Virus record (IMG/VR): IMGVR_UViG_2778261058_000003
DNA: 5,993 nt
Reading direction: 5' to 3' (one strand)
Origin: a virus
Taxonomy: Duplodnaviria > Heunggongvirae > Uroviricota > Caudoviricetes
The position numbers were made by a program, and so were the translations under genes. Numbering within the stretch: position 1 is the stretch's first letter; every line of letters starts with the position of its first letter. Positions 61 through 536 of this stretch are shown here, piece by piece. The notes beneath the pieces were generated by a model that saw nothing but the letters and a program-made list of their open reading frames with translations, searched no databases and had not been told where the DNA came from.

Positions 61-144
61 TTATCCCCAGCGGCAAATCGAATACACCACCAGCACCACC
101 GCCATCGCAATTCCTACCGTGGTGAATGCTTCGGGCCAGGTCAT
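61..144 (-). CDS. Small hydrophobic peptide (27 aa), MTWPEAFTTVGIAMAVVLVVYSICRWG; not in the ORF track
   Basis: ATG at complement 142..144 overlaps the TGA stop of the 141..536 ORF (ATGA). AGGAGG (complement of 152..157) lies 7 nt upstream. In-frame TAA at complement 61..63. The hydrophobic core TVGIAMAVVLVVYSI would fit a single transmembrane helix. Confidence 0.4.
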   Translation of the reverse strand: MTWPEAFTTVGIAMAVVLVVYSICRWG

Positions 145-536
145 CGATTCACCTCCTGCTCAATATTTTTAAGGTCATTTTCCGCATACAGTATTGCTGT
201 CCTGGCTGCTCGTAACCGGGCTTTGGCATTTTTCTCTTCACGTTCAAGTTTTGCCACAGCTTCACGAAGAGCATCCCGCTTTGCATAGAGTGATTTAATC
301 TCTGATACGATGTTTTCACCGTTTCTCGCACGGTCGAGAACAAGTTCGAACGGATCTAAAGTCAATCCACACCGTTTGCAGGTAATCGTACGATTCACTT
401 CTGAAATTGTTGTACGGATATGCTGACAGCATTTTTGCTCGACACTTTTTTCGTCGGTTATCACAACGTTGAGGAGTCCTCCCTCCTCTGATTTTGGCTG
501 TACCAGGGTGATAACATTGTCGACTTCATTTTTCAT
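141..536 (-). CDS. Hypothetical phage protein with a putative zinc ribbon (CC-x15-CxxC) and a C-terminal coiled-coil-like, charged helical region
   Basis: 131-aa ORF. Start ATG overlaps the stop of the upstream gene (ATGA at 536). AGGAGG (complement 544..549) lies 7 nt upstream. Cys pattern CCQH...CKRCG; the C-terminal 50 aa are rich in A/E/K/R heptad-like repeats. Confidence 0.6.
   Translation of the reverse strand: MKNEVDNVITLVQPKSEEGGLLNVVITDEKSVEQKCCQHIRTTISEVNRTITCKRCGLTLDPFELVLDRARNGENIVSEIKSLYAKRDALREAVAKLEREEKNAKARLRAARTAILYAENDLKNIEQEVNR

Follow-up and report, generated by a model that had tools for sequence, protein, structure and literature searches.

Surveys of Enterobacteriaceae have recovered conserved, mostly hydrophobic intergenic micro-ORFs (ORF, open reading frame) by the tens of thousands (Entero67K, PMC11188072), and about 13% of the Entero67K ORFs start no more than 10 nt from an upstream stop codon, about a third of those overlapping it (PMC11188072). 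The 5,993-nt stretch of Caudoviricetes DNA analyzed here (IMG/VR record IMGVR_UViG_2778261058_000003; "the window" denotes this whole stretch) carries on its minus strand a 27-codon ORF that resembles them: It is an unannotated ORF within the 15-70-codon range, under purifying selection, hydrophobic, probably transmembrane (TM), and it starts at the stop codon of a co-directed upstream gene. Unlike the Entero67K ORFs, the peptide family it encodes resides on phage genomes and moves among temperate phages, phage-plasmids and a virulent phage, and the peptide string is absent from the supplementary files of PMC11188072 that were searched. The comparisons described below show that the reading frame is under purifying selection and is that of a real gene, not a chance ORF. 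Our best explanation, which we put forward tentatively, is that this genuine gene encodes a 27-residue single-pass inner-membrane micro-protein of a portable family, which binds a membrane partner.

Small regulatory inner-membrane proteins include KdpF (29 aa), PmrR (29 aa), MgtS (31 aa), AcrZ (49 aa) and MgrB (47 aa). The peptide is like these proteins in being shorter than 50 aa, in having a single predicted TM helix and in the conservation of specific residues beyond mere hydrophobicity. Unlike them, it is phage-encoded, lies in an early phage operon and has no adjacent gene for a membrane partner, and there is no homology between them: the best NCBIfam match, TIGR02115 (kdpF), scores 11.7 bits against a cutoff of 26.85 (E = 0.21). 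A second comparison is offered by YdfD of the Qin prophage, which has an N-terminal transmembrane segment. YdfD is a 63-aa lysis protein encoded after dicB, and its soluble part inhibits IspG (PMC8835842). In NC_000913.3, dicB ends at 1649797 and ydfD starts at 1649794, a 4-nt overlap. The peptide is likewise a small protein of an early lambdoid-prophage operon whose start overlaps the stop of an upstream small gene by 4 nt; however, it consists of essentially a TM helix only, whereas YdfD is more than twice as long, and the peptide has no homolog in Qin.

A first-pass annotation of the window, made from the sequence alone, had placed the feature at 61-158, which is the ORF plus its Shine-Dalgarno (SD) site. 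The minus-strand ORF, the strong SD site 7 nt before the ATG and the overlap of that ATG with the upstream stop codon were all confirmed in the sequence (Table 1), the minus-strand text of window positions 160-55 being AGCAGGAGGTGAATCGATGACCTGG...CGCTGGGGATAAAAAC. A length of 27 codons is by itself ordinary, as the window contains 32 ATG-initiated ORFs of 20-40 aa, and among these the peptide has the top grand average of hydropathy (GRAVY, 1.18). It has one hydrophobic span, residues 6-24, with a Kyte-Doolittle 19-residue mean of 2.24, which bears out the description of the peptide as dominated by a single stretch of TM length; the Hessa sum, taken independently of position, is about -0.2 kcal/mol. 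The ORF had also been called unlisted, and RefSeq/PGAP and nearly all phage records indeed leave it unannotated. What places it beyond chance is that unrelated contexts share the frame, the ATGA overlap and the SD site.

We used 230 bases around the ORF as a BLAST query. Matches in many genomes and phages were confined to query positions 85-171, that is, to the ORF ± 2 nt, and in the translated matches the frame was intact each time. Next to MTWPEAFTTVGIAMAVVLVVYSICRWG in the window, the peptide reads MTWPEAFANVGTVMAVVLVVYSICRWR in 933W, Stx2-II and Sakai Sp5, MTWPEAFTTVGIAMAVALVVYSICRWG in ArgO145, M(M)NWPEAFTAVGVAIAVAFILYSLFRWG in BP-4795 and VT1-Sakai, MSWPDAIVTLGMVFAAAFVVYSICRWG in PhiR12_1 and MTWPEAFTTVGVVMAVAFAVYSVCRWG in Av-05, a virulent member of the Vequintavirinae; PhiR49_2 also keeps it. 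Altogether, more than 200 copies in unrelated contexts keep the frame.

For quantification, loci that protein patterns had picked out of GenBank phages, GTDB genomes and IMG/VR were combined with the window into a set of 99 copies with 41 distinct 81-nt sequences. About two-thirds of the distinct sequences encode one identical peptide and differ only synonymously. Between divergent copies, the Nei-Gojobori pairwise ratio of non-synonymous to synonymous rates (dN/dS) is 0.05-0.4, and the proportion of synonymous differences (pS) reaches 0.7 with the peptide kept; the window and Av-05 are separated by 14 synonymous and 6 non-synonymous differences (dN/dS 0.05). As a frame control, the ratio of non-synonymous to synonymous proportions (pN/pS) was counted in all six frames and summed over 8 divergent copies: It is 0.36 in the ORF frame, versus 0.86 and 1.29 in the other sense frames and 1.15, 0.43 and 1.42 in the antisense frames. 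The value of 0.43 belongs to the antisense frame whose third codon positions coincide with those of the ORF, a frame that is closed in the window. Together with the intact translations across phages, this bears out the earlier proposal that relatives conserve the frame, not just the DNA.

A less biased sample consisted of 120 IMG/VR loci retrieved at the DNA level through the final 23 nt of the ORF. It contained 114 full-length open frames, 4 copies with in-frame deletions of 2 or 4 codons and 2 frameshifted copies with one identical 1-nt deletion, and none of the 120 loci had a nonsense codon in the ORF. The canonical peptide start is present in 100 of the 114 open frames, and the remaining 14 have W3R (7), P4S (5), P4T (1) or a GTG start (1). 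Over codons 1-19, the 108 gap-free copies display 23 distinct synonymous and 30 distinct non-synonymous variants, an excess of synonymous change over the expected fraction of 0.27 (binomial p = 0.008). Over all the copies compared, in this sample and elsewhere, the indel alleles found inside the ORF number eight in frame versus one frameshift. The disrupted copies include the 1-nt-deletion frameshift allele (L111/L160/L178; strain AREA_505), that of Shigella phage POCJ13, in which W3 is replaced by TAG, and one 5'-deleted copy in a decayed prophage (L112); in 3 of the 99 pooled copies the stop codon is lost, which leads to short C-terminal extensions. Disruption of the ORF between conserved flanks, named beforehand as evidence that would count against a gene, is thus confined to a small minority (2/120 frameshifted, for example), which fits ordinary prophage decay.

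These data also bear on whether the peptide could be functionless, with the ORF being a translated spacer, DNA kept as a recombination linker or for the hok promoter, or an RNA element, all of which we consider highly improbable. Short ORFs do stay open easily, selection in the close population is only moderate, and the junction GGAGGTGAA..ATGA, which is found again elsewhere in the array where other genes meet (window 534-550), may serve modular recombination. However, the peptide is retained at the highest synonymous divergence seen, the synonymous excess is specific to the ORF frame and the non-open antisense frame that shares its third positions, the indel alleles are biased towards those in frame, and the ORF is conserved without a neighboring hok in 60% of copies. 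We reject the RNA-element variant because no RNA structure signal was found (z-score of -1.27 for the fold of the ORF; -5 kcal/mol with essentially no covariation on alignment folding) and no Rfam family covers the ORF.

The coupling signal recurs behind unrelated upstream genes. Comparison of the 30 nt upstream of the peptide distinguishes at least four unrelated classes: the C-terminus of DUF551 (...PLPEPPQEVNQ, then stop), a protein ending in ...GLISVEDILR, the 131-aa protein of the window ending in ...NIEQEVNR and a 220-aa protein of Av-05 ending in ...KKKGMNQ. The upstream protein is a mosaic ead/Ea22-like or DUF551 one in 75 of 99 copies and the 131-aa protein in 14 of 99, and the sequence past the peptide stop falls into at least 10 classes. 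Whatever the upstream gene, the ATGA overlap with its stop is present in 102/102 copies, and an SD-like GGAG/GAGG/AGGA lies no more than 18 nt upstream in 98/102. The first-pass annotation had the ORF translationally coupled to the Zn-ribbon/coiled-coil (131-aa) gene; the overlap is indeed present here, but that partner is not a constant one.

By the sequence criterion of a start/stop overlap preceded by an SD site that lies within the upstream gene, the ORF is a putative translationally coupled terminal cistron. Mosaic breakpoints coincide with the peptide start and stop codons, and the gene moves as a unit bounded by them. Breakpoints of this kind, combined with an invariant coupling signal, are as expected of a functional cistron moved by recombination. 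We also considered a programmed frameshift that would fuse the peptide to the 131-aa protein. It is unlikely: the GCAGGAGGTGAATCG interval contains no slippery heptamer, and the peptide frame is shut by a TAG five codons before the ATG.

A conservation profile of 22 distinct 27-residue variants shows W3, R25 and W26 to be invariant and P4, E5, A6, G11, A15, Y21, I23 and C24 to be nearly so, while at positions 2, 8, 9, 12, 14, 16 and 19 small or hydrophobic residues replace one another freely. Conservation is concentrated at both predicted membrane interfaces (WPEA and YSICRW) and in the G11xxxA15 pair. R25 favors a topology with the C-terminus inside, while the natural fusion described below would imply a tail-anchor with the N-terminus inside.

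The family is carried in the early accessory (ea / exo-xis / nin-like) arrays of lambdoid and Shiga-toxin (Stx) prophages, IncY phage-plasmids and at least one virulent coliphage. In the mechanism we propose, ribosomes leaving the upstream gene would re-initiate on the peptide ORF, the terminal cistron of the early operon, as the invariant ATGA overlap and the SD site suggest, and the peptide would be made while that operon is on, during infection or induction, and be silent in the repressed lysogen. It would then insert as one transmembrane helix, as its hydropathy suggests, flanked at either interface by aromatic and charged residues (W3-P4-E5 and Y21...R25-W26). Re-initiation and insertion are predictions with good support, and the earlier proposal of a translated, small, coupled membrane peptide missed by ORF callers probably holds in light of the comparison; as to function, that proposal had named toxins, membrane-targeted regulators and exclusion factors as the options. 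In a last step, the peptide may bind a specific host (or phage) membrane protein and thereby modulate takeover, exclusion or the balance between lysis and lysogeny. Binding to a partner, which we suggest by analogy, is the weakest step of the mechanism; we favor it because the constraint sits in the interfacial motifs, whereas the hydrophobic core varies. Bacterial small membrane proteins usually act in this way rather than by non-specific damage to the bilayer.

Several observations weigh against this explanation. The TM core tolerates in-frame changes in length of -4 to +8 residues, which makes a precisely registered helix-helix interface awkward. Strain N51 has 2 additional residues in the core, a VL duplication, (AM)n or (AV)n expansions give peptides of 31-35 residues, with (AM)n arising from (GCGATG)n, and core deletions of 2 or 4 residues occur in the 120-locus sample; all these length changes are in-frame, by hexanucleotide or multiple-of-three events. 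A candidate conserved helical face (P4-G11-A15-L18-S22-R25) is not significant (moment 0.12, permutation p = 0.40). The W3R and P4S/T alleles are found in 13/120 copies, so the N-terminal motif is not strictly required, and within the close population selection is no more than moderate (pN/pS about 0.5). Finally, neither the upstream nor the downstream classes contain a constant neighboring membrane-protein gene that would point to a partner. Overall, the peptide ranges from 23 to 35 residues in length (P0029, P0031, P0032, P0033; L001 4799-4888, L151, L222, L117, L163).

The sequence that follows the gene brings in a further alternative. Among 102 copies, hok/sok lies downstream in 39 and a scored terminator-like hairpin with a T-run in 22; DUF4222 (then xis, int) is the next gene directly downstream in 7 copies, and about 14 copies have an ArgO145-type downstream sequence with the hairpin AAAGATCCCGAC...GCCGGGATCTTT, which was read by eye and went unscored in the scan. 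A position directly upstream of a killer locus in those 39 copies would suit a membrane-damaging small toxin, of type I or kil-type, whose helix would be made early, oligomerize and depolarize or permeabilize the inner membrane. The peptide is like the type I toxins Hok/Gef, Ibs, Ldr, TisB, ShoB and DinQ in being small and hydrophobic with one predicted TM segment and, in the window, in adjoining a hok/sok locus; its 27 aa, hydropathy and single TM span are in the range of DinQ, ShoB, TisB and Ibs. The core moreover accepts length changes and many hydrophobic substitutions, as if bulk hydrophobicity were what matters. Unlike these toxins, however, the peptide gene lacks its own promoter and long leader, an antisense RNA and a conserved mRNA fold, displaying the invariant ATGA overlap instead; the peptide has no toxin family match in Pfam or NCBIfam; no Rfam antitoxin lies over the ORF, the sok model beginning only past its stop; and conservation is focused on the interfacial motifs rather than even along the helix. 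We regard a toxin as unlikely, although it is a serious rival, and favor partner binding over it, because the gene lacks its own leader, an antisense RNA and a conserved RNA fold.

In the window, the hok/sok type I toxin-antitoxin locus stands directly after the peptide gene, and the end of the window falls within the hok leader. Rfam model RF01794 (sok/hok-leader) matches the near-identical locus L001 with 119.7 bits, starting 41 nt past the peptide stop, at the equivalent of about window position 19. The hexamers TTGCGG and TAGAAT at window 53-26 are read directly from the sequence and probably represent a promoter. The peptide gene is thus the final cistron before an autonomous hok/sok module, and outside that module.

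Ea22 has an exchangeable C-terminal domain (PMC10834534), and one natural variant connects the peptide to it. P0041, a protein of 143 aa, consists of an EaD/Ea22-like N-terminal and coiled-coil part fused in frame to MSWPDAFAIAGVAMSIALIVFAICRWG, the joint being the conserved ...DLPPLE of that family, then SNK, then MSWPDAFAIAGVAMSIALIVFAICRWG. Six contigs carry it, and a separate sequencing run lies behind each of the three places inspected (L108 2001-2432, L109 and L110); DUF4222, xis and int follow downstream, and an SD-like GGAGAG still precedes the internal ATG. P22 EaD continues with a soluble domain at that position. The fused peptide fills the slot of the exchangeable C-terminal domain of Ea22, a hint that the peptide can act as a membrane anchor for ea-type proteins.

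Extended to the family as a whole, this would make the peptide a detachable membrane anchor that recruits upstream Ea22/DUF551-type proteins to the inner membrane, in some phages as a C-terminal tail-anchor fused to them and otherwise as a subunit of its own. Its usual position agrees with such a role, as 75/99 copies follow mosaic ead/Ea22-like or DUF551 genes, and like the Ea22/Ead C-terminal domains (PMC10834534) it is found at the 3' end of ea22/ead/DUF551-type genes, with one lineage fused. Unlike those domains, it usually stands apart as a cistron that has an SD site and start codon to itself, and it is a membrane helix, not a folded soluble domain. The variety of upstream partners (DUF551, ...GLISVEDILR, 131-aa and Av-05 220-aa) makes a specific non-covalent partnership unlikely. 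The fusion, for its part, is a single rare lineage against thousands of separate copies and has kept its internal SD-like sequence, and P22 EaD is without such a segment. A detachable anchor is quite improbable in our estimation, although the fusion makes it a serious rival.

A more ambitious form of the partner-binding proposal is conceivable, although we hold it to be rather doubtful. The peptide genes may be an uncatalogued, very widespread family of portable "terminal micro-protein cassettes" that temperate, plasmid-borne and virulent coliphages swap as units onto the ends of early operons, target a host inner-membrane machine and so bias the lysis-lysogeny decision or exclusion. By analogy, candidate targets might be the FtsH/HflKC protease, which controls CII, or the DNA-entry proteins ManYZ/PtsG, and within this scheme the peptide could also serve as the tail-anchor of Ea22-like developmental regulators.

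The positions of the gene within phage genomes are as varied as its neighbors. In the window prophage it lies in a nin-like region on the pR side, and the prophage accessory region assigned to it beforehand is correct. The exo-xis/ea region beside xis and int harbors it in BP-4795, VT1-Sakai and the PhiR phages, and in Sakai Sp5 it belongs to a leftward unit headed by an antirepressor gene at the right prophage end, with its ATG at about NC_002695.2 position 1305868 on the minus strand. The Sp5 block (NC_002695.2 1304955-1308324, L100) comprises the antirepressor gene, small genes, DUF551, the 131-aa gene, the peptide gene, mokC/hok and a 114-aa gene; it sits after the tail genes as a separate leftward unit, a location different from the nin-like one of the window. 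933W has an apparently similar right-end block, judged from coordinates near the end of the record. P1-like IncY phage-plasmids of about 95-100 kb from E. coli, Salmonella, E. fergusonii and Klebsiella carry the variant MSWPEAFTTVGIVMAAALGLYSICRWW (181 PLSDB records).

In Av-05, a 121-kb virulent myovirus (L007 842-1584), an ea-type gene is followed by the coupled peptide gene. The ea-type product shares the segment DDMAYAFHHALSDSS.GADEVEEIK.GLRAAFANV with the 205-aa ORF of the window. The Av-05 case is evidence of module exchange between temperate and virulent coliphages.

Two further functional categories were compared. A holin or antiholin does not match the location, which has the replication genes on one side and Q on the other; the holins and endolysin are encoded about 5 kb further on, after Q (L113), and the only match to a holin family, phrog_785 (E = 0.11), is obtained only for an N-terminally over-extended variant. 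Nor does the peptide match a known defense or superinfection-exclusion protein, with hits to 0 PADLOC families and only weak, variant-dependent PHROG matches.

The gene is common: the 84-nt ORF is present at nearly full length in 1609 of 5426 complete E. coli genomes (about 30%), at 3061 places, with up to 7 per genome and 163 on plasmids, and tblastn detected the peptide in 94 records of GenBank phages. Its occurrence in the species representatives of GTDB is limited to E. coli, Shigella flexneri, an Escherichia sp. and two tiny contigs, L014 (431 bp, labelled Xanthomonas pisi) and L015 (369 bp, labelled Acinetobacter idrijaensis), which are most likely assembly contamination. The K-12 prophages CPS-53, Rac, Qin, DLP12 and e14 contain no copy by tblastn, and because of this no named K-12 small protein corresponds to the peptide.

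The peptide has nevertheless gone almost uncatalogued. A few GenBank records name exact copies "hypothetical protein" or "bacteriophage protein", but the family is without a name, without a Pfam, NCBIfam or PADLOC entry and without a consistent PHROG match. The PHROG matches (phrog_4612, 35838, 22915 and 785; E 0.008 to 0.15) change with the variant used, and we treat them as generic transmembrane similarity. A HMMER search of 1.84 billion representatives, made with a 32-aa in-frame translation from the window, returned only 24 clusters at E ≤ 1e-3, all of them members of the peptide family or gene-caller variants of it except two unrelated repetitive proteins (P0036 and P0043). Two other apparent relationships were discarded: a 90% cluster that joins the peptide with 121-aa DUF551 proteins is an artefact of partial proteins at contig ends, the peptide and DUF551 sequences having nothing in common, and the alignment of P22 EaD and a Klebsiella phage homolog into the peptide is a spurious BLAST extension, neither protein having a transmembrane segment there.

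A full-text literature search for "MTWPEAF" gave no match. The Sakai ribosome-profiling supplements contain neither the peptide string nor coordinates beginning 13057/13058. The cultures used there were reportedly not induced for prophage expression, which makes this absence uninformative either way.

The window is part of a lambdoid (Qin/Rac-like) prophage. Its minus strand encodes, in order, a cro-like helix-turn-helix gene, ydaT, replication genes, DUF977, a run of small "ea"-type genes, the 205-aa ORF, the DUF551 gene, the 131-aa gene and then the peptide (Table 1), and a cI-like LexA-family repressor gene lies on the plus strand. The nearest complete genomes are those of E. coli A36, in which the peptide ORF is 100% identical, and N51; in both, the peptide is followed by the Hok/Gef locus, DUF968, rusA, Q, tRNAs and the lysis cassette, and PGAP annotation of the peptide is absent.

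Table 1 Coordinates of the peptide gene, its signals and its neighbors in the window.
Feature	Position	Strand	Remarks
27-codon ORF with TAA	61..144	minus	encodes MTWPEAFTTVGIAMAVVLVVYSICRWG; predicted single-pass membrane micro-protein
Peptide start ATG	144-142	minus	read from sequence
Peptide stop TAA	63-61	minus	read from sequence
ATGA overlap of peptide ATG and upstream TGA (143-141)	141..144	minus	termination-reinitiation coupling signal
Shine-Dalgarno GGAGG	152..156	minus	7 nt (TGAATCG) before ATG; within the last codons of the upstream gene (QEVNR)
Upstream 131-aa gene	141..536	minus	CC-X16-CxxC and C-terminal coiled-coil-like region; phrog_1621, unknown function
Promoter-like TTGCGG-16 nt-TAGAAT of hok/sok	26..53	minus	begins 7 nt past peptide stop; neighbor, outside the peptide gene
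hok/sok locus	1-53	minus	4930-5102 in L001
DUF551 gene	536..901	minus
205-aa ORF	898..1515	minus
Stop of DUF551 gene / next start	538-534	minus	TGATG overlap
Junction CAGGAGGTGAA ending the DUF551 gene	534-550	minus	followed by 1-3 nt and overlapping stop/start
Junction CAGGAGGTGAA ending the 131-aa gene	141-158	minus	followed by 1-3 nt and overlapping stop/start

The DUF551 and 131-aa genes end in the same junction. It encodes the C-terminal ...QEVN and at the same time serves as the SD of the following cistron, and it may be a micro-homology at which ea-type modules are exchanged. In the 131-aa protein, the CC-X16-CxxC motif is followed by a long helical, coiled-coil-like tail. The protein matches phrog_1621 with E = 3e-47, and its other matches, to Cas12f TNB zinc-ribbon, Rad50 and LmuB coiled-coil models, are all sub-threshold (E 4e-4 to 0.02). 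The Zn-ribbon label given to it is plausible.

If the peptide is translated as the coupling signals suggest, a gene present in about 30% of complete E. coli genomes, often in multiple copies, is omitted by standard annotation. Thousands of prophage annotations miss a selected gene, the practical consequence of which is modest yet real. The family would also be a clean case of a micro-gene acting as an independent mosaic module in the evolution of phage genomes. So far it offers no mechanistic surprise, but it is common and occurs in medically relevant phages, the reference Shiga-toxin phages 933W and Sakai Sp5/Sp15 among them. In Stx phages, the decision between lysis and lysogeny is reportedly influenced by products of the ea / exo-xis array such as Ea22 (PMC10834534), and a membrane-acting member of the array would therefore provide a new handle on this poorly understood region.

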